Sequence record: NC_073314.1 | Reading direction: 5' to 3' (one strand) | Origin: Escherichia virus fEg-Eco19 | DNA length: 45,805 bases | Part shown: piece after piece, positions 5,752 through 44,757 of the stretch | Numbering within the stretch: the first letter of the stretch is position 1 | Layout of the letters: every line of letters starts with the position of its first letter | Notes under the pieces: generated by a model | Database searches by the model: none | What the model was told of the DNA's origin: nothing | What the model saw: only the letters and a program-made list of their open reading frames with translations | Position numbers and translations under genes: made by a program

Positions 5752-6998
5752 GTATTCAGTTATCTGCCCCGCAGGCGCTGTTCCTGAATTGCGATAACAA
5801 ATACAAAGCCTACGTCGGCGGCTTCGGCAGCGGAAAGACATTTGTCGGCTGTCTCGACCTGCTTACGTTCATGCTCAAGCACCCTGGTACGCGCCTCGGA
5901 TACTTCGGCCCAACATATCCGGCTATCCGTGACATCTTCTACCCAACATTCGAGGAAGCGGCTAATTTACTCGGTCTCGATGTGCTGGTTAAATCCGGCG
6001 ACAAAGAAGTCGTGGTTACCCGCGGTAAGACGGTGCTCGGGACTGTTATCTGCCGCTCGATGGATAACCCCGGTTCTATCGTCGGCTTCAAAATCGCCGC
6101 TGCGGTCGTTGATGAACTGGACGTATTGAGCCGTGAAAAAGCTGAACTGGCGTGGAACAAAATCGTCGCCCGTATGCGTCTTGTTATCCCTGGCGTAATT
6201 AACCACATCTCTGTCACCACGACGCCAGAAGGGTTCAAGTTCGTTTACTCCAAGTTCAAAGAGAATCCGACACCGAGTTACTCAATGGTGCAGGCCTCCA
6301 CACACGAGAACGCGCGATTCCTGCCGCCGGATTACATTAGCTCGCTGACCGAGACTTACCCAGCGCAACTGATTAACGCGTACCTGAATGGGGAGTTCGT
6401 TAACCTGACATCCGGCAGCGTCTACTACGCCTACGACCGACGTAAGCATCGCAGCAAAGAGACAATCCAACCGGGCGACACGCTGTACATCGGGCAGGAC
6501 TTCAACGTTACGAAGAACGCCAGCGCTGTGTATGTGCAACGTAAAGACGGCTGGCACGCGGTAGCAGAACTTAAGGGCCTGTTCGATACGCCAGATACCG
6601 TGCGTGTGATTACCGAGAAGTGGAAGTCGCAAGGCCACCGCATCGTCGTTTACCCGGACGCCAGCGGCAAGAACCGCAAAACCAACTCGGCATCAATCTC
6701 CGATATCGCCTTACTACAGCAGGCCGGTTTTGATGTTCGCGCTAAATCCGCCAACCCACCGGTTAAAGACCGTGTTTTAGCCGTGAATACCGCGCTGGAA
6801 AAAGGTAAGCTGTGGGTTAACGACCGCTTATGCCCTGAGATAGCGAAGACACTGGAGCAGCAGGCATATGATGATAACGGAGAGCCTGCTAAAGACGGTG
6901 TCATTGACCATATGGCGGATGCTCTCGGCTATCCTGTAGTTTATGAGATGCCGGTGGTTAAGCCAGTAATCAACATCCCGGTGACTTTCGCACTTTAA
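5748..6998 (+). CDS. terL: terminase large subunit
   Basis: Walker A GGFGSGKTF near N-terminus; 416 aa; followed by portal. Confidence 0.8.
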   Translation: MSIQLSAPQALFLNCDNKYKAYVGGFGSGKTFVGCLDLLTFMLKHPGTRLGYFGPTYPAIRDIFYPTFEEAANLLGLDVLVKSGDKEVVVTRGKTVLGTVICRSMDNPGSIVGFKIAAAVVDELDVLSREKAELAWNKIVARMRLVIPGVINHISVTTTPEGFKFVYSKFKENPTPSYSMVQASTHENARFLPPDYISSLTETYPAQLINAYLNGEFVNLTSGSVYYAYDRRKHRSKETIQPGDTLYIGQDFNVTKNASAVYVQRKDGWHAVAELKGLFDTPDTVRVITEKWKSQGHRIVVYPDASGKNRKTNSASISDIALLQQAGFDVRAKSANPPVKDRVLAVNTALEKGKLWVNDRLCPEIAKTLEQQAYDDNGEPAKDGVIDHMADALGYPVVYEMPVVKPVINIPVTFAL

Positions 6999-10093: not shown

Positions 10094-10615
10094 TTATTTA
10101 AATCGCGCAGGCATTAACACCATAAAGGCCGTGTTTGAAAATAGTATTTTGCATCCTCTGGTTTGGTCCTGGAAATCGAAACGAGCAATTTCATTTTTGT
10201 ATGCCTTAGAAATCTTGTACGCGTCTGCCAAATAGCGCAGAGTGAACCCTATACTATCGACAACACCCGGTGTGATGTGCGCCACGCGTCTCCAGTCAGG
10301 AAAGTTTCCTTCTACAACATCTACCGGAAGTGTACATATAAGCGCACGATTATCGTCATAGAAAGATACACTGCCGTTGTCGTGGTCTACCTCTGCGTAG
10401 TTAAATTTAGAAGGCTCTCTCCCTTTGATGTTTATGAGAGTCCCTTTCTCAACGTTGGTCTTCACATTGTCGCAGAACAATCTATGACCGTCCGTAGACA
10501 CTATCAATCCTTCAGGGTCTATGTAAAAAGCGTTCAAATAGTGGCGAACATCATTTTTAGCCCTGCATATTTTCGCCCCTACATACGCAGGGAAAGTAAT
10601 TACTGTAGTAACCAT
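10094..10615 (-). CDS. hypothetical protein, opposite-strand accessory gene in head module
   Basis: 173-aa ORF with AGGAGA RBS; visibly AT-richer than flanking head genes; own promoter. Confidence 0.55.
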   Translation of the reverse strand: MVTTVITFPAYVGAKICRAKNDVRHYLNAFYIDPEGLIVSTDGHRLFCDNVKTNVEKGTLINIKGREPSKFNYAEVDHDNGSVSFYDDNRALICTLPVDVVEGNFPDWRRVAHITPGVVDSIGFTLRYLADAYKISKAYKNEIARFDFQDQTRGCKILFSNTAFMVLMPARFK

Positions 10616-10640
10616 TTCTCATCTCCTGTTTAAGTTAACT

Positions 10641-10669
10641 GAATAGTACCCTATTATATTGGGGTGTGC
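10641..10669 (-). promoter_or_regulatory. sigma70-like promoter (TTGCAC-N17-TACTAT class) with AATAG-N4-CTATT palindrome
   Basis: Reverse complement reads TTGCACaccccaatataatagggTACTAT; ~30 nt upstream of the ATG at 10615. Confidence 0.45.
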
Positions 10670-10723
10670 AAACTATTTGTTTACGTATTCCAGTTATTCC
10701 ACTCAATTGTAAATGTTGGAATA

Positions 10724-10766
10724 AACTATTCGAATAGTTGACTTTTCACTGAAAATATGATAAGCT
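10724..10766 (+). promoter_or_regulatory. 16-bp perfect palindrome AACTATTCGAATAGTT abutting a TTGACT-N17-TAAGCT promoter
   Basis: Read directly from sequence. Confidence 0.35.
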
Positions 10767-10772
10767 CCACCT

Positions 10773-10973
10773 GAGCTTGTGAAGTATGAACAAGCGACCG
10801 CGGCGCGGGCAGGTAACGGAGCGGGACGTAAGTCCTGAGTGTAGTTACGCTGACGCGTTCGGAAGGGCCATACTCTATTGCTTGTGTAAAAAGTAACTGG
10901 TTTACTGAGATTACGCCGTTTCTATGTTTAAATGATAAGGACTAGCGCCCCGCTTTAAGGCGGGGCTTTACTT
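10773..10973 (+). ncRNA. candidate small non-coding RNA (promoter to terminator, no ORF over 36 codons)
   Basis: GC-rich ~200 nt between promoter at ~10738-10766 and terminator at ~10947-10973. Confidence 0.2.
10947..10973 (+). terminator. rho-independent terminator
   Basis: GCCCCGC-tttaag-GCGGGGC followed by TTTACTT. Confidence 0.5.
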
Positions 10974-10990
10974 ATCGAGAAAGGGGAAAC

Positions 10991-11350
10991 ATGAATCTTA
11001 AAGCAACTGTCGTAGCCGGAGCATGTTTCGTCGTCCTAGCCTACGCACACGGCATCTATCAATACCGCAGCGGCTGGGGTGAAGGCCGTGCTAATCTCGT
11101 TTCGCAGCAGCAGCAGAAAGCACAGGCCGCGCTGGTGAAGAAAACACAACGGCAGCAGCAGGATGAATCAAAGGCCGCCGCCGCTGACAACGAAGGCAAA
11201 ACGAAATCAGAGGTGATAACCCGTGAAGTCGTTAAGTACATAAGTCGACCCAATAAGGTATCTTGCAAGTTTGACGCTGATAGAGTTAGAATCAAATACG
11301 ACGCTGTCAACAACGCAAACGGGATACCAGGGTATGACGATATTAAATGA
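10991..11350 (+). CDS. putative i-spanin (Rz-like)
   Basis: N-terminal TM helix, then Q/K/A-rich helical region, conserved Cys near C-terminus; 119 aa. Confidence 0.4.
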   Translation: MNLKATVVAGACFVVLAYAHGIYQYRSGWGEGRANLVSQQQQKAQAALVKKTQRQQQDESKAAAADNEGKTKSEVITREVVKYISRPNKVSCKFDADRVRIKYDAVNNANGIPGYDDIK

Positions 11351-11840
11351 TACTTTCTACTACGATGATGGGGTTCTTTACTGGCGTAGCAGTAAGCTCG
11401 CCAATAAAACAGGAACCCCAGCAGGGTGCCTAACTACGCCGAAAGGCGCAAAACGGCGACAGACGATAGAGGTTAGATGGATGGGGAAGGCGTTTCAAGC
11501 GCACCGTCTTATATGGGAACTTTTCAATGGGCCAATTCCGACGCCATATGAGATAGACCACATTGACGGGAACCCACTCAACAATCGTATAGAAAATCTA
11601 AGGCTTGCTACTAGCCAAGAGAACAGTCGTAACGTTGGTCTCACGTCCGCTAATAGTACAGGGTTCAAAGGGGTTTCCAGGTTCCCAAACGGCAGATTCC
11701 GTGCGGACATAAGAATCCGCAACAAGACCAAATACCTCGGTCAGTTCGACTCCCCCGTCGACGCACACAAGGCCTACGTGCAAGCTGCCAAGAAGCTACA
11801 TGGAGATTTTTTCAAATGCGACTGCCAATATTGCTCTTAG
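11334..11840 (+). CDS. HNH homing endonuclease with AP2-like domain
   Basis: AHRLIWELFNG...EIDHIDGNPLNNRIENLRLATSQENSRN, then GFKGVSRF...AYVQAAKKLHGDF; paralogous to 31390..31875 and 33289..33786. Confidence 0.75.
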   Translation: MTILNDTFYYDDGVLYWRSSKLANKTGTPAGCLTTPKGAKRRQTIEVRWMGKAFQAHRLIWELFNGPIPTPYEIDHIDGNPLNNRIENLRLATSQENSRNVGLTSANSTGFKGVSRFPNGRFRADIRIRNKTKYLGQFDSPVDAHKAYVQAAKKLHGDFFKCDCQYCS

Positions 11841-12055
11841 TTATATGGTGCTACGGGTGCTCAAGTCCCGCGCCGTCGTCAATGCCAACTCCGTCCCCGG
11901 ATACGACGATGATGCAGCCGCCGTGCAAACTGGCACCGCCAAGTAGCGACGCTGACGAGGATTTAGCTATCGACGTTCAGAACGCCGAATGTGTACGGCA
12001 ACTGAGACTGAAAGTGTTCATGTTGCAGGATTACGTGAGGAATATTCTGGAATAG
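11816..12055 (+). CDS. putative o-spanin (Rz1-like lipoprotein)
   Basis: MRLPILLLVIWCYGC signal with lipobox-like YGC, then Pro-rich PAPSSMPTPSPDTTMMQPP; overlaps HNH 3' end. Confidence 0.4.
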   Translation: MRLPILLLVIWCYGCSSPAPSSMPTPSPDTTMMQPPCKLAPPSSDADEDLAIDVQNAECVRQLRLKVFMLQDYVRNILE

Positions 12056-12137
12056 TTGCCTTGCATGTTGGAATAATTTATTCTTGACATGTAAATCCGG
12101 GTGGCCCGGGTTCCAACGTCCAGGGGACATACTGACT

Positions 12138-13891: not shown

Positions 13892-13907
13892 GGTTAAGCT
13901 ATAATCG

Positions 13908-13931
13908 AGAGGGACTTCGGTCCCTCTTTTC
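13908..13931 (+). terminator. rho-independent terminator
   Basis: AGAGGGAC-ttcg-GTCCCTCT followed by TTTT. Confidence 0.6.
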
Positions 13932-19191: not shown

Positions 19192-19196
19192 AACTA

Positions 19197-19220
19197 AGGC
19201 CCCTTTCGGGGCCTTTTTCT
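19197..19220. terminator. bidirectional hairpin terminator
   Basis: AGGCCCC-tttc-GGGGCCT with T-run; sits between convergent genes. Confidence 0.5.
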
Positions 19221-20997: not shown

Positions 20998-21038
20998 GGG
21001 GTAGCTCCTGTTTGAGTTAACATTGTTGGTGTAAGTGA

Positions 21039-21067
21039 ATAGTACCCTATTATATTGGGGTGTGCAA
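21039..21067 (-). promoter_or_regulatory. sigma70-like promoter (TTGCAC-N17-TACTAT class) with AATAG-N4-CTATT palindrome
   Basis: Near-identical to the 10641-10669 element (shared run GAATAGTACCCTATTATATTGGGGTGTGCAA). Confidence 0.45.
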
Positions 21068-40424: not shown

Positions 40425-40925
40425 TTATTCTTCTTCGAAATACTTGTTCTTGATTGCTGTCAGGCGTTCCAGGTACTCGGCCAGGTCTTCGTCTTTAATC
40501 GCGGCAATCTTCATCTTCTTACCGGTGAACTCTTCCAGCAGTTCATCAGAATCGTCGCACGCGGCATCGCTCGGACCTTCGTTAATTGCATCGTCGATAG
40601 CCTGAATCTGGTCACGAAGAGACTGGTAATCGACTTCTTCTTTCTCTTCTTCTGGTTCTGGCGTCGGCTCCTCTACTTTAGCTTTACGCGGCTTACGTTT
40701 TGGCTTCTCTTCTTCTGCCGGTTTAGTGTCGACGATGTCTTCACCTTCAACCGGGATTTCTTTTGTTTCTTCTTTAATACTTTCAGAGAACTGCTCAATT
40801 TTATGAGCGGCTACCGCGGCAGCCTCTTTGGCAGTAGTTGGCGCGAACTGTTTCGCACTATTCGCAGCAATCAGTTCATGTGCAACTACGAAACGTTCCA
40901 GTAATACTAAGAATTTCTCTAACAT
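40425..40925 (-). CDS. acidic coiled-coil protein, early gene
   Basis: 166 aa, Glu/Asp-rich with a central KPKRKPRKAK patch; driven by the strong promoter at ~40957-40985. Confidence 0.5.
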   Translation of the reverse strand: MLEKFLVLLERFVVAHELIAANSAKQFAPTTAKEAAAVAAHKIEQFSESIKEETKEIPVEGEDIVDTKPAEEEKPKRKPRKAKVEEPTPEPEEEKEEVDYQSLRDQIQAIDDAINEGPSDAACDDSDELLEEFTGKKMKIAAIKDEDLAEYLERLTAIKNKYFEEE

Positions 40926-41030
40926 TTGTTTCTCTCCTCTCGTTTGGTATGGGCTAACTATAATAGTGAACTATTCACATGTCAATGGGCTTTTCTAAAA
41001 TAATTAATATGGTACTATTCACATATCAAC
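40889..41030. repeat. direct repeat copy 1 (142 bp), divergent promoter/operator region
   Basis: Identical by eye to 41310..41451; contains the first 12 codons of ORF 40425..40925, TTGACA-N17-TATAGT (minus), an AATAG-N4-CTATT palindrome and a plus-strand TGgTACTAT extended -10. Confidence 0.7.
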
Positions 41031-41309: not shown

Positions 41310-41451
41310 CGAAACGTTCCAGTAATACTAAGAATTTCTCTAACATTTGTTTCTCTCCTCTCGTTTGGTATGGGCTAACTATAATAGTGAACTATTCACA
41401 TGTCAATGGGCTTTTCTAAAATAATTAATATGGTACTATTCACATATCAAC
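41310..41451. repeat. direct repeat copy 2 (142 bp)
   Basis: Second copy of promoter/operator region plus a 12-codon 5' fragment of ORF 40425..40925; also contains the last three codons and stop of the primase gene. Confidence 0.7.
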
Positions 41452-44334: not shown

Positions 44335-44371
44335 CCAATCCATGCTATATTTAATCTTTACAAAAAAGTTA

Positions 44372-44401
44372 TTGAAAGTTCTTGACACATGTTTGTATAA
44401 T
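44372..44401 (+). promoter_or_regulatory. sigma70-like promoter TTGAAA-N18-TATAAT (rightward)
   Basis: Read directly; divergent from the leftward promoter. Confidence 0.4.
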
Positions 44402-44407
44402 GGTTTT

Positions 44408-44629
44408 GGGACTTGTATATATTACGGAGTTGACGAACCCTCCCCGAGGGATTCGTCAACCCCTCCCAGACAGCTGAGATGCTTGTTTTAGGGTTTAAGG
44501 ATAAGTGTATCTAAATCTCATTTAAAGAAGTAACCCACTGAAATATCTACTGTTTCTTAATGTGCCGTAGATTCGCAACCGTAAAAATGTAACGATTATT
44601 GGGCAGGCCTTAAGGCCTGCCCTTTAGTT
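44408..44629 (+). ncRNA. candidate small non-coding RNA / structured leader
   Basis: Promoter at ~44372-44401, 14-bp imperfect hairpin at ~44429-44460, then strong terminator at ~44601-44629; no ORF over 10 codons. Confidence 0.25.
44601..44629 (+). terminator. rho-independent terminator
   Basis: GGGCAGGCC-ttaa-GGCCTGCCC perfect 9-bp stem followed by TTTAGTT. Confidence 0.6.
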
Positions 44630-44694: not shown

Positions 44695-44723
44695 TTGCAC
44701 ACCCCAACATAATAGGATACTAT
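44695..44723 (+). promoter_or_regulatory. sigma70-like promoter (TTGCAC-N17-TACTAT class) with AATAG-N4-CTATT palindrome
   Basis: TTGCACaccccaacataataggaTACTAT, ~35 nt upstream of ORF start. Confidence 0.45.
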
Positions 44724-44757
44724 TCACTTATCGAAACGAGACAGATGAGTGAGGGTT

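Follow-up and report, generated by a model that had tools for sequence, protein, structure and literature searches.

A conserved structured leader RNA at the head of the spanin-to-tail operon in Kagunavirus-like phages

The Kagunavirus-like phage fEg-Eco19 (Guernseyvirinae; NC_073314.1, 45,805 nt, the whole stretch analyzed here and called the window) carries at positions 10724–10973 a unit that is not a small gene: its promoter leads into a non-coding RNA, conserved and folded, and then into a hairpin terminator. This unit heads a rightward block of spanin, scaffold, capsid, connector and tail-tube genes, and divergent versions of it fill the same slot in several hundred Guernseyvirinae genomes, including E. 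coli and Salmonella phages. The RNA is very probably a non-coding structured leader, which probably acts in cis on the expression of the downstream operon. By analogy with the put elements of phage HK022, it may specifically be an antiterminator, a possibility that we place on the unlikely side. The features of the unit and its flanks are as follows.

10686–10731, no strand: repeats TATTCC (10686–10691), TTATTCC (10694–10700), GGAATAA (10718–10724) and CTATTC (10726–10731), from the sequence and its inverted repeat.
10724–10739, no strand: perfect palindrome of 16 bp, AACTATTCGAATAGTT, sharing 2 bp with the −35 hexamer.
10738–10766, + strand: putative sigma-70 promoter with −35 TTGACT (10738–10743) and −10 TAAGCT (10761–10766), from sequence and conservation.
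10775–10795, + strand: P1, a 5′-terminal hairpin (GCUUGU/ACAAGC) with a 9-nt loop, from folding and pair changes.
10786–10896, + strand: 36-codon ORF, the longest on this strand, broken in relatives and not a gene.
10798–10862, + strand: P2-P3-P4, a long irregular three-tier hairpin, from single-sequence folds and pair counts.
10863–10880, + strand: conserved single-stranded tail, AAGGGCC (10863–10869) and CUCUAUUG (10873–10880), from the alignment.
10881–10946, + strand: AU-rich spacer with no conserved structure, from diversity and composition.
10947–10966, + strand: leader terminator GCCCCGCTTTAAGGCGGGGC with an 8-bp GC stem and a 4-nt loop, from the hairpin and its tail.
10980–10993, + strand: ribosome-binding site AAAGGGGA and i-spanin ATG (10991), from the sequence, the ORFs and the annotation of relatives.

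The preliminary description had noted a palindrome, a promoter, a terminator and an ORF in this region, and all four are present in the sequence where it put them. By its sequence, the putative promoter belongs to the sigma-70 class with an extended −10 element: the two hexamers are separated by a 17-bp spacer, and a TG (10758–10759) lies one base upstream of the −10. TTGACT-N17-TAAGCT matches a single site in the whole window and none in shuffled sequences. Comparison of relatives of types A, c2, B and D showed the hexamers and the TG to be invariant and the spacer to vary; type B has TAGACT/TG/TACGCT as its equivalent, and type D has TGGACT/TG/TAACCT. The same site is independently predicted and annotated as a host promoter in the fBC-Eco01 record, and we infer a start site at ~10772–10774. 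The TG, overlooked in the preliminary description, is kept in every version of the element.

The repeats upstream of the promoter probably constitute a regulator-binding region, centered at approximately −48 from the start site. Among them, the GGAATA..TATTC inverted repeat (10718–10731), which is located just 5′ of the −35, is common to types A, B and D and more widely conserved than the 16-bp palindrome that it overlaps; it is missing from the second-copy promoters, and the GGAATAA motif shows no genome-wide enrichment. The palindrome is specific to type A, where most relatives keep it with occasional single uncompensated changes. We rejected it as statistically exceptional: a window is expected to have 0.70 perfect palindromes of this length by chance, and one or more turned up in 48% of dinucleotide shuffles. 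The weight of this palindrome comes from its position and conservation. It had been described as the operator half-sites in inverted order; its arrangement is not that of the early-promoter operators, and types B and D as well as the second copy lack it.

The 36-codon ORF is annotated as a hypothetical protein in several GenBank records. It is intact in most type A copies, in which a few substitutions near the C-terminus keep the frame. That it is a real gene for a 36-residue protein is nevertheless scarcely credible: one-base indels cut it to 9–22 codons or shift its frame in seven versions (L007, L008, L022, L030, L023, L131 and the second copy of Schulenburg), types B and D have no start codon at its position, its ATG lies inside the P1 loop, and its Shine-Dalgarno sequence is weak. 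The unit had been described as lacking a convincing ORF, and the broken frames and missing start codons agree. A mini-ORF with a UUG start after AAGGG was discarded, as neither its length nor its presence is conserved.

The first ~95 nt of the transcript form two adjacent hairpins, P1 and the three-tier P2-P3-P4. P1 begins ~2 nt past the predicted start site and occupies the very 5′ end in all types; hairpins of other sequence stand in its place in type B (ACGCU/AGCGU), type D (CGUUC/GAACG) and also c2c. In P2-P3-P4, the lower stem pairs CCG.GGCGCG with CGCGUU.CGG and the middle stem pairs CAGGUAAC with GUUAC.CUG, while the apical hairpin (10822–10837) carries a GUAA loop; together they make a coaxial irregular hairpin of ~25 bp with internal loops. 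The same two-hairpin architecture was obtained in independent single-sequence folds of all subtypes. In the alignment fitted to the model, which supplies most of the covariation count, 90.9% of the cells pair and both sides have changed in 21 of 30 pairs; slid controls were 30–39% paired, and none of 500 shuffles reached the observed value. In the structure-blind alignment, 94.4% of the cells pair, and four pairs have changed on both sides versus zero to one in slid controls. Both sides have changed in four of the six P1 pairs, and one P2 pair occurs in three forms (C-G, U-A and A-U). The fold of the first ~95 nt is maintained by selection. G-U pairs are conserved, and the RNA therefore lies on the + strand. 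Comparison across related phages had been put forward as a check of structure and covariation, and the compensatory changes support a structured + strand RNA.

Conservation within this domain extends beyond pairing. The lower stem of P2 is conserved in sequence as well, and the upper stems vary freely with their pairing kept. The P4 loops are not conserved, with GUAA, GUUAA, GUCA, CACA, AUUA, UCCG and UACG all found. Sequence conservation is also seen at the P1/P2 junction and in the single-stranded tail, which is nearly invariant in types A, B and c2 and partly so in type D; UCUAUU is also found 3′ of the hairpins in the unrelated-looking type C leader. Several further pairings were rejected. 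Pseudoknots between the tail and the internal loops had no compensatory support. A P0 pairing would join CCU, 5′ of P1, to the AGG in the tail, but this CCU probably precedes the start site and c2c lacks it. A closing stem between the −10 region and the sequence after the terminator looked fitting (GATAAG/CTTATC in type A and TACGCTA/TAGCGTA in type B), but in many type A copies an unchanged CTTATC is accompanied by GCTAAG, and the −10 is not expected in the transcript.

Nucleotide diversity over 10708–11007 is 0.005–0.06, versus 0.05–0.21 in the spanin gene and 0.3–0.6 upstream; the unit is the lowest-variability segment of its own neighborhood. This low-diversity block is sharply bounded at ~10700 and ~11010–11040, beside mosaic junctions: different phages have different genes upstream of the unit, and L019 switches to another spanin allele. 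Such a block might be expected of a DNA-level element, for example a replication origin, a linker for recombination between mosaic modules or a protein-binding array, whose transcription would be incidental. However, the compensatory changes and the strand-specific G-U pairs point to RNA and the promoter elements are precisely conserved, and we regard a DNA element as very unlikely.

The structured 5′ domain might alternatively sense a ligand or signal as a riboswitch-like attenuator, alternating with the terminator. A 17-nt inverted repeat with 82% complementarity (10820–10836 with 10938–10954) overlaps the 5′ arm of the terminator and would suit this arrangement, but the P4 changes in L023, L007 and L008 are unmatched at 10938–10954. 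A terminator/antiterminator switch is unsupported because this pairing is uncompensated in the variants. The 3′ halves are moreover unrelated among subtypes that have a common 5′ domain. Rfam 15 returned nothing for the whole window at the gathering thresholds and only chance-level matches at E ≤ 10 (<19 bits versus thresholds of 35–100), leaving the element without an Rfam match even at that cutoff. Attenuation of this kind is highly improbable.

The promoter and the 5′ domain together behave as a portable module, of which GenBank contains ~450 copies. Many Kagunaviruses have a second copy, with the same promoter, that heads the other rightward gene block; in Schulenburg-type phages, two similar copies behind identical promoters stand at the heads of the two rightward blocks, and 43 of the 179 records have the element in two places. 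fEg-Eco19, Bas70 and T102 have a single copy. fEg-Eco19 itself carries two unrelated leader cassettes, and different leader types are freely swapped between closely related phages with no obvious linked protein. The family model did not detect the leaders of type C (Cornellvirus), Serratia phage Tsm2 or Hafnia phage TS33, which fill the same slot and whose homology to the element is unproven. Beyond the phages, no homologue was found in E. coli chromosomes, the sole match in the plasmid collection was a mis-filed Kagunavirus genome, and all true matches in IMG/VR were Guernseyvirinae-like contigs. A scan for tRNA and tmRNA found none, and spanins, promoters and intergenic or non-coding transcripts go unmentioned in the main text of the K1B4 transcriptome paper. 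The element is a new structured RNA family, with no such family described before.

The unit had been called ~200 nt of GC-rich sequence, which holds for its first ~97 nt (61% GC) but not for the next 77 nt (10870–10946, 34%) or for the unit as a whole (50%, the genome average). Within type A, this AU-rich 3′ half has very low sequence diversity and is as invariant as the 5′ domain. A Rho-loading site in the spacer was dismissed, as the spacer is not C-rich (11 C versus 15 G). In fEg-Eco19, 10947–10975 has the features of an intrinsic (Rho-independent) terminator and may well act as one: the hairpin, with an energy of −17.2 kcal/mol, is followed by TTTACTTAT, and the tail to 10975 reads UUUACUUAU. 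As previously described, it stands directly before i-spanin, the first gene of the operon and so annotated in relatives, whose ATG is 25 nt past the hairpin. The terminator stem covaries (GCCCUGC/GCAGGGC in L010 and L025, GCCCGAC/GUCGGGC in the type B version L047). The U-tract is poor in type B (UUAGCGUAU), type D and the second-copy (c2) versions; family-wide, the element therefore ends in a hairpin rather than in a reliable terminator.

These features bear on the choice between a free sRNA and a leader, which the preliminary description had left between "an sRNA or a regulatory leader controlling late lysis genes". If the ~200-nt terminated transcript were the product, it would act in trans on host or phage mRNAs or proteins in the manner of lambda 6S or of StxS, the sRNA that Stx phages make from PR′-tR′. 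In type A the unit comes with its own promoter and a reasonable terminator, its full 200 nt hardly vary within that type, the unstructured AU-rich half included, and many genomes contain a second paralogous copy. However, types B, D and c2 have no terminator U-tract, and even the type A terminator has no long Hfq-type U tail. Complementarity to the phage genome is at chance level, with longest matches of 11–13 nt and E-values of 0.2–3, and no homologue or obvious partner was found in E. coli genomes. What the family has in common is the structured 5′ domain rather than a single-stranded seed. Since the 3′ hairpin covaries but its U-tract is poor in types B, D and c2, and since no promoter-like site was found between the leader terminator and the i-spanin ATG, we favor a leader over a free sRNA, which is quite improbable. 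A regulatory leader, non-coding, structured and on the + strand, thus stands from the earlier proposal, while a discrete sRNA is doubtful. The reference to late lysis genes was too narrow: the unit heads the spanin-to-tail-tube block, and the holin and endolysin genes are outside this operon.

A regulatory leader is also a reasonable reading because the only promoter nearby is on one side of the unit and the i-spanin gene on the other. Terminators on the + strand are located at 10947, 13907 and 19196; real terminators thus occur within the operon, such as that at 13907–13928, 3′ of the capsid gene, and no strong + strand promoter-like site was found between 13928 and 19196. Our best explanation as a whole, held tentatively, combines the structured leader module with a put-like mechanism. 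The RNA would work in cis with the host machinery only: the nascent two-hairpin domain would stay on its own RNA polymerase, which would become resistant to pausing and termination. A polymerase from the leader promoter could then pass the terminator at 10947–10966 and internal ones such as that at 13907–13928 and reach the distal structural genes. A partner supplied by the host alone is suggested because leader types are swapped among close relatives, because fEg-Eco19 has two unrelated cassettes, and because the annotation of two well-annotated relatives contains no antiterminator of the Q or N kind. A model of RNA polymerase binding alone leaves the invariant AU-rich 3′ half unexplained, and readthrough of a terminator with the tail UUUACUUAU could be mere leakiness. 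The single copy in fEg-Eco19, Bas70 and T102 also differs from the paired arrangement of put.

The main rival of the put-like reading is a leader for RNA processing or stability, which we judge somewhat unlikely. P2-P3-P4 would be a site for RNase III or another RNase, and P1 or the 3′ hairpin would protect the ends; the leader would set the 5′ end and half-life of the late mRNA and separate it from transcripts reading through from upstream, a role that RNase III sites near promoters have in phage T7. The ~25-bp irregular hairpin with internal loops, in which the upper stems vary with pairing kept, fits this role, as do P1 at the very 5′ end in all types and the GC hairpin before the ribosome-binding site, which is retained in types B and D though it cannot terminate there. 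Interchangeable cassettes are likewise compatible with a function that needs host factors only. However, P2 and the AAGGGCC/CUAUUG tail are conserved in sequence, which RNase III does not need, and a simple 5′ hairpin would suffice for stabilization.

Alternatively, the leader could be the site for a phage protein, either an antiterminator of the N or Q type or a regulator of translation or stability, that switches the late operon on in time; the conserved base of P2 and the tail would then be its recognition site. The conserved nucleotides at the P1/P2 junction and in the tail are in line with this proposal, and the phage encodes small HTH proteins whose role is unassigned. The layout of the leader, moreover, copies that of lambda PR′-6S-tR′, in which a leader of ~200 nt and a terminator separate a constitutive-looking promoter from Rz-like and late genes. 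Yet no Q- or N-like protein is found in relatives, going by their annotation, the loop sequences are not conserved, and the early transcribed region has neither boxA nor a conserved −10-like pause element. Leader types are also swapped without a linked protein, and one phage has two unrelated cassettes. A dedicated phage protein is improbable.

Kagunavirus and Jerseyvirus rank with the most frequently isolated phages for therapeutic and biocontrol use against E. coli and Salmonella; hundreds of their genomes are public, and they drive their late genes with no polymerase but that of the host. This element is the most conserved non-coding segment beside the capsid operon. It is currently annotated as a small protein, which is wrong, or left blank; its recognition corrects the annotation and defines a structured RNA family with clear covariation. 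The ~95-nt domain, with a defined promoter and a defined terminator, offers a compact handle on late-operon expression. If the put-like reading is true, the leader would add to put a second, independent family of phage antiterminator RNAs that need no protein, and would supply synthetic operons with a portable part. It is conceivable, though doubtful, that the element represents a new put-like family of self-sufficient antiterminator RNAs that bind RNA polymerase in virulent siphophages, and one among several unrelated interchangeable promoter-plus-leader cassettes that Guernseyvirinae exchange where their rightward operons begin, namely types A/B/D, type C, and the slot-2 cassettes of fEg-Eco19 and T102. 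RNA-only control of processivity would then be a common modular strategy of phages and not a curiosity of HK022.

Among known systems, lambda PR′-6S-tR′, together with StxS, shares with the unit a constitutive-looking promoter, a ~200-nt untranslated transcript and an intrinsic terminator immediately upstream of Rz/Rz1-type genes and a ~20-kb late structural operon. In contrast to lambda, the leader RNA here is highly structured and covarying, and the holin and endolysin genes are outside the operon. As for control of the Q type, no antiterminator is annotated in Schulenburg or Bas70, as far as annotation goes, and no Q-binding element was found; the only −10-like sequence that could serve as a sigma-dependent pause element for Q, AGTATG in the P1 loop, is not conserved in B, D and c2c. 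A nut site comprises boxA, GCUCUU(U)A, followed by a boxB hairpin whose loop is conserved. The leader has no boxA: CUCUAUUG is located 3′ of the hairpins, and its 'GCUC' part varies (CUCU, GUCU, UUCU, GGCU and CUAU). Similarity of CUCUAUUG or GUAGUUACG to boxA or ops was rejected, as critical bases vary or misalign.

Phage T7 pairs its promoters with RNase III sites, which are long irregular hairpins just past the promoter. The leader resembles R1.1, R3.8 and R6.5 in its ~25-bp irregular hairpin with internal loops, located just past a promoter and before an operon. Sites of this type are cleaved within an irregular duplex of about two helical turns, and the modeled architecture of the leader would be compatible with this. 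It differs from them in the extra 5′ hairpin, the conserved single-stranded tail and the sequence-conserved lower stem.

In Tn916, a small 'ORF' proved to be a cis-acting antiterminator RNA, canT (PMC11658703). As with canT and the conAn antitermination RNAs of conjugative elements, a leader of a mobile element has been annotated as a small ORF, is non-coding, and heads a long operon with internal terminators, on which the RNA acts in cis (PMC11658703). The hosts of those elements are Gram-positive and their sequences are unrelated, and cis action is a prediction for the leader described here.

HK022 putL and putR are cis-acting, factor-independent processive antiterminators that work through the zinc-binding domain of the RNA polymerase β′ subunit. 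The two copies, each of ~70 nt with two stem-loops, are located downstream of PL and PR and act over >10 kb (PMC9378689). A −10-like pause signal is reported to be conserved in putL and has no conserved counterpart in the leader. The family covariance model R2 found nothing in the HK022 genome at E ≤ 10, indicating no homology to putL or putR. The leader is also longer (~90 nt versus ~70 nt), and it belongs to the structural and other rightward operons of a virulent phage, whereas put belongs to the early PL and PR operons. The likeness to put lies in the arrangement: the leader follows closely on a putative sigma-70 promoter, it heads a long phage operon with terminators inside, its two stem-loops adjoin each other from the transcription start onward, and nucleotides close to their junction are conserved. 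It also has no evident dedicated protein, and many relatives carry two similar copies behind two promoters.

The unit upstream of the i-spanin gene represents a leader RNA family not described before, supported by covariation and placed at the start of the late operon in a large, much-used phage group. The finding of the preliminary description is real and of more interest than was supposed there, and its palindrome, promoter, terminator and 36-codon ORF were each located where it had placed them:

10724-10739: perfect 16-bp palindrome, AACTATTCGAATAGTT
10738-10743: −35 hexamer TTGACT
10758-10759: TG of an extended −10
10761-10766: −10 hexamer TAAGCT, 17-nt spacer
10775-10795: P1, 5′-terminal hairpin
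10786-10896, plus strand: 36-codon ORF, start ATG in the loop of a hairpin
10798-10862: P2-P3-P4, three-tier hairpin
10947-10966, plus strand: terminator hairpin GCCCCGC-TTTAA-GCGGGGC, then TTTACTTAT
10991, plus strand: ATG of i-spanin, first gene 3′ of the element

By BLAST, 180 GenBank phage records match 10600-11000 at 90-99% identity, comprising Kagunavirus (E. coli) and some Jerseyvirus (Salmonella), Guernseyvirinae throughout. In annotated relatives, the element lies between a variable leftward gene (sliding-clamp-like protein, methyltransferase or small hypothetical protein) and the i-spanin gene, which is followed by o-spanin, scaffold, major capsid, connector and tail genes. The TG and both hexamers are unchanged in every version of the element while the spacer between the hexamers varies, which is how a working promoter is conserved. 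In the genome record of fBC-Eco01, the identical 29 bp are marked, independently, as a host promoter, and the identical hairpin as a terminator. The spanin locus of the window also carries an HNH_3 + AP2-domain homing endonuclease gene (11331-11840, plus strand; Pfam E = 6e-23), flanked by the ORF of i-spanin (10991-11350) and, on its other side, by a candidate o-spanin of unusual length (79 aa, 11816-12055); in relatives, the two spanin genes overlap without the inserted gene. PLSDB entry CP088689.1 (44086 bp), listed as an E. coli plasmid, non-mobilizable and originating from human blood, matches the element at two places with 98.6% identity and, given these two matches and its Kagunavirus-like length, is probably a phage genome rather than a plasmid.

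The 36-codon ORF is shortened by single-base indels to 9 codons in the related-phage loci L007, L008 and L022, 17 in L030, 19 in L131 and 22 in the second copy of phage Schulenburg, and is frame-shifted in L023. The T102-like (type B) and pink/phiEap-2-like (type D) versions have no start codon at its position. This comparison indicates that the ORF is not a protein gene, in keeping with the original impression that no ORF was convincing, and a real micro-protein ranks among the lesser explanations. The Schulenburg, Bas70 and fBC-Eco01 records annotate it as a hypothetical protein, and the second Schulenburg copy is overlain by two small minus-strand 'hypothetical proteins', which are probably spurious. 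All these annotations (L001 1687-1797, L002 1674-1784, L267 442-558 and L044 37869-38144) probably represent mis-annotated RNA.

Of the ~200 nt of GC-rich sequence described after the promoter, only the first ~97 transcribed nt deserve the term (61% GC), as the next 77 nt are 34% GC. Single-sequence folding gave one architecture in all 28 distinct versions: the 5′-terminal hairpin P1, a gap of 0-2 nt, a long hairpin of stacked helices P2, P3 and P4, and a single-stranded tail, AAGGGCC...CUCUAUUG. Salmonella phage T102 has a divergent homologue, with ~59% identity, which retains the short blocks ACCGCGG, TTCGGAAGGGCC and CTCTATTGCTT, between which the sequence is replaced and still self-complementary. 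For the apical hairpin P4, at least seven different sequences were seen (GGGAC-GUAA-GUCCU, CGGAC-GUUAA-GUCCG, GGUGC-GUCA-GCACU, CACGU-CUCG-ACGUG, GUGCC-AUUA-GGCAC, GGGCGC-CACA-GCGCCC and GUGCC-UCCG-GGCAC). A covariance model built on 13 close sequences and the P1/P2-P3-P4 structure also picked up the divergent types. In the alignment fitted to this model, which by its fitting favours the structure, pairing holds in 90.9% of cells, and 21 of the 30 pairs changed on both sides; none of 500 shuffles came up to this, and pairing fell to 30-39% when one strand was slid by 1-3 columns. When close relatives were aligned with MAFFT, blind to structure, pairing held in 94.4% of cells, and four pairs changed on both sides, versus 0-1 in slid controls. 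One position of the P2 lower stem shows three pair types (C-G 11, U-A 11, A-U 2), and the remaining P2 sequence is conserved. Structure and covariation analysis across related phages, proposed earlier as a check, thus found a shared fold and compensatory changes. The RNA is read from the plus strand because two P2 G-U pairs, retained in 26 of 28 sequences, would be C-A mismatches on the opposite strand. These pairing patterns indicate that the element encodes a structured RNA on the plus strand; a DNA-level element is a lesser alternative. Rfam 15 contained no match to the element.

The terminator hairpin is the only conserved structure 3′ of the tail, and its stem covaries (GCCCUGC/GCAGGGC in loci L010 and L025; GCCCGAC/GUCGGGC in one type B phage). 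The window's own type A has a U-tract that is no better than fair (UUUACUUAU); in type B (UUAGCGUAU), type D and second copies it is poor. We found no promoter-like site in the 25 nt from the hairpin to the spanin start; therefore, operon transcription from the leader promoter must pass the hairpin. Between the two roles first suggested, sRNA or regulatory leader, the unit looks like a 5′ leader in most of the family, whereas a free-standing, trans-acting sRNA fits the poor U-tracts outside type A badly and is a lesser alternative. An antiterminator pairing with the terminator was considered and rejected, as variants showed no compensation.

Upstream of i-spanin, type A is found in ~178 GenBank phages, type B in ~268, and type D in pink, phiEap-2 and GRNsp27. 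Serratia phages carry a short version, and Cornellvirus-like phages a different-looking type C, known from 24 full-length records and, at 72% identity, from Pantoea AH01. The broader model R2 picks up types A, B, D and second copies, and did not detect the type C, Tsm2 and TS33 leaders. The type C leader (L034 990-1310, L035, L038 and L039) has two hairpins in an arrangement of its own, one capped by GAAA and then GGGAC-GGGCC-GUAA-GGCC-GUCCC, followed by ...GUCUAUUC. The 24 records are 81-100% identical to one another, and with Pantoea AH01 their diversity should suffice for an independent covariation analysis.

A second copy, c2, is present in many Kagunaviruses; its promoter, TTGACT-N17-TG-TAAGCT, is identical, its 5′ domain is the same apart from numerous compensatory changes, and its 3′ half differs. 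Two places per genome were matched in about 43 of 179 records; in Schulenburg they lie at 6280 and 37878, at the heads of its two rightward gene blocks, of which one comprises small genes and those for lysis, terminase, portal and head, and the other those for spanins, capsid and tail. The window phage has no c2. Its equivalent slot, occupied by c2 in many relatives, holds an unrelated promoter-structured RNA-terminator cassette without an ORF (~44362-44625, plus strand). The cassette has a TTGAAA-N18-TATAAT promoter containing TTGACACATGTTTGTATAAT, a motif also found upstream of the Cornellvirus type C leader, a long hairpin at ~44430-44470 and a strong terminator, GGGCAGGCC-TTAA-GGCCTGCCC, at 44602-44623. 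Its RNA folds far better than shuffles (z = −5.2), and its conserved 3′ third is common to 333 phages. T102 has yet another 5′ part in this slot. Because equivalent slots are filled differently, the leaders behave as interchangeable modules. The least variable block of the neighbourhood is 10708-11007, where 27 distinct type A loci have a nucleotide diversity of 0.005-0.06, compared with 0.05-0.21 in the spanin gene and 0.3-0.6 upstream. The edges of this block fall on mosaic junctions, so recent horizontal spread may contribute to the low diversity besides selection.

The palindrome by itself is unremarkable, since 0.7 perfect 16-bp palindromes are expected by chance at the window's size and composition. 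Most type A copies keep every base pair of it, and the occasional isolated changes are uncompensated; types B and D and the c2 promoters lack it. Common to types A, B and D are a GGAATA..TATTC dyad centred ~48 bp upstream of the start and TTATTCC repeats farther upstream, which look like a candidate binding region for a regulator of the leader promoter alone. The half-site AATAGT also occurs within TGAATAGTnnnCTATTAT, a motif repeated at early promoters and given as a PHIRE 'phage promoter' consensus in a published genome paper; as the half-sites face opposite ways in the two, one dimer is unlikely to bind both in like manner.

A ~32-nt repeat, TGAATAGTACCCTATTATATTGGGGTGTGCAA, occurs at 10640-10671, 21036-21067, 44695-44726 and 82-100, each time ~25-35 nt upstream of the adjoining gene's start (e.g., the leftward clamp-like gene at 10615). 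Reversed, it reads TTGCAC-N17-TACTAT; it agrees with the PHIRE consensus published for fBC-Eco01 and is probably a promoter that encloses an AATAG..CTATT operator. The o-spanin/scaffold intergenic region (12040-12100) repeats the leader promoter's upstream motifs, GAATAGTT and then GGAATAATTTATTC abutting TTGACA, followed by a small hairpin (CCGGG-UGG-CCCGG) and no recognisable −10, and may be a second site for the putative regulator. A perfect 142-bp direct repeat (40889-41030 and 41310-41451, spacing 421 bp) contains two strong promoters with operators (TTGATA.. and TTGACA-TGTGAATAGTTCACTATTATAGT) and the beginning of a small gene, so that each is present twice.

We infer a cis-acting element for which host machinery suffices, because a promoter, a non-coding RNA with a selected fold from the transcript's 5′ end and a hairpin or terminator precede the first gene, genuine terminators follow farther along the operon, at 13907-13928 behind the capsid gene and at 19196-19215, without a strong plus-strand promoter-like site in between, a search of annotations in relatives found no Q- or N-like protein, and leader types are freely exchanged among close relatives. 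A site for a putative phage protein and a riboswitch-like attenuator are lesser alternatives. The 5′ RNA might, as a tentative possibility, make polymerase resistant to the leader and operon-internal terminators without a protein factor, in the manner of put. The main rival, a processing and stability leader, is only slightly less probable. RNase III cuts irregular hairpins directly 3′ of T7 promoters, which P2-P4 resembles, and mRNA ends could be shielded by P1 and the 3′ hairpin; against this reading, the sequence itself is conserved in the P2 lower stem and in the tail.

The element's arrangement most resembles that of the HK022 put RNA, a two-stem-loop RNA just 3′ of a promoter, in two similar copies behind two promoters, that renders polymerase terminator-resistant over >10 kb without protein factors (PMC9378689). 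The likeness is one of analogy, not membership: the element is larger, and the HK022 genome gave no match to its family model. A precedent for a leader 'ORF' being RNA is canT of Tn916, where the supposed ORF is actually a cis-acting antiterminator RNA (PMC11658703).
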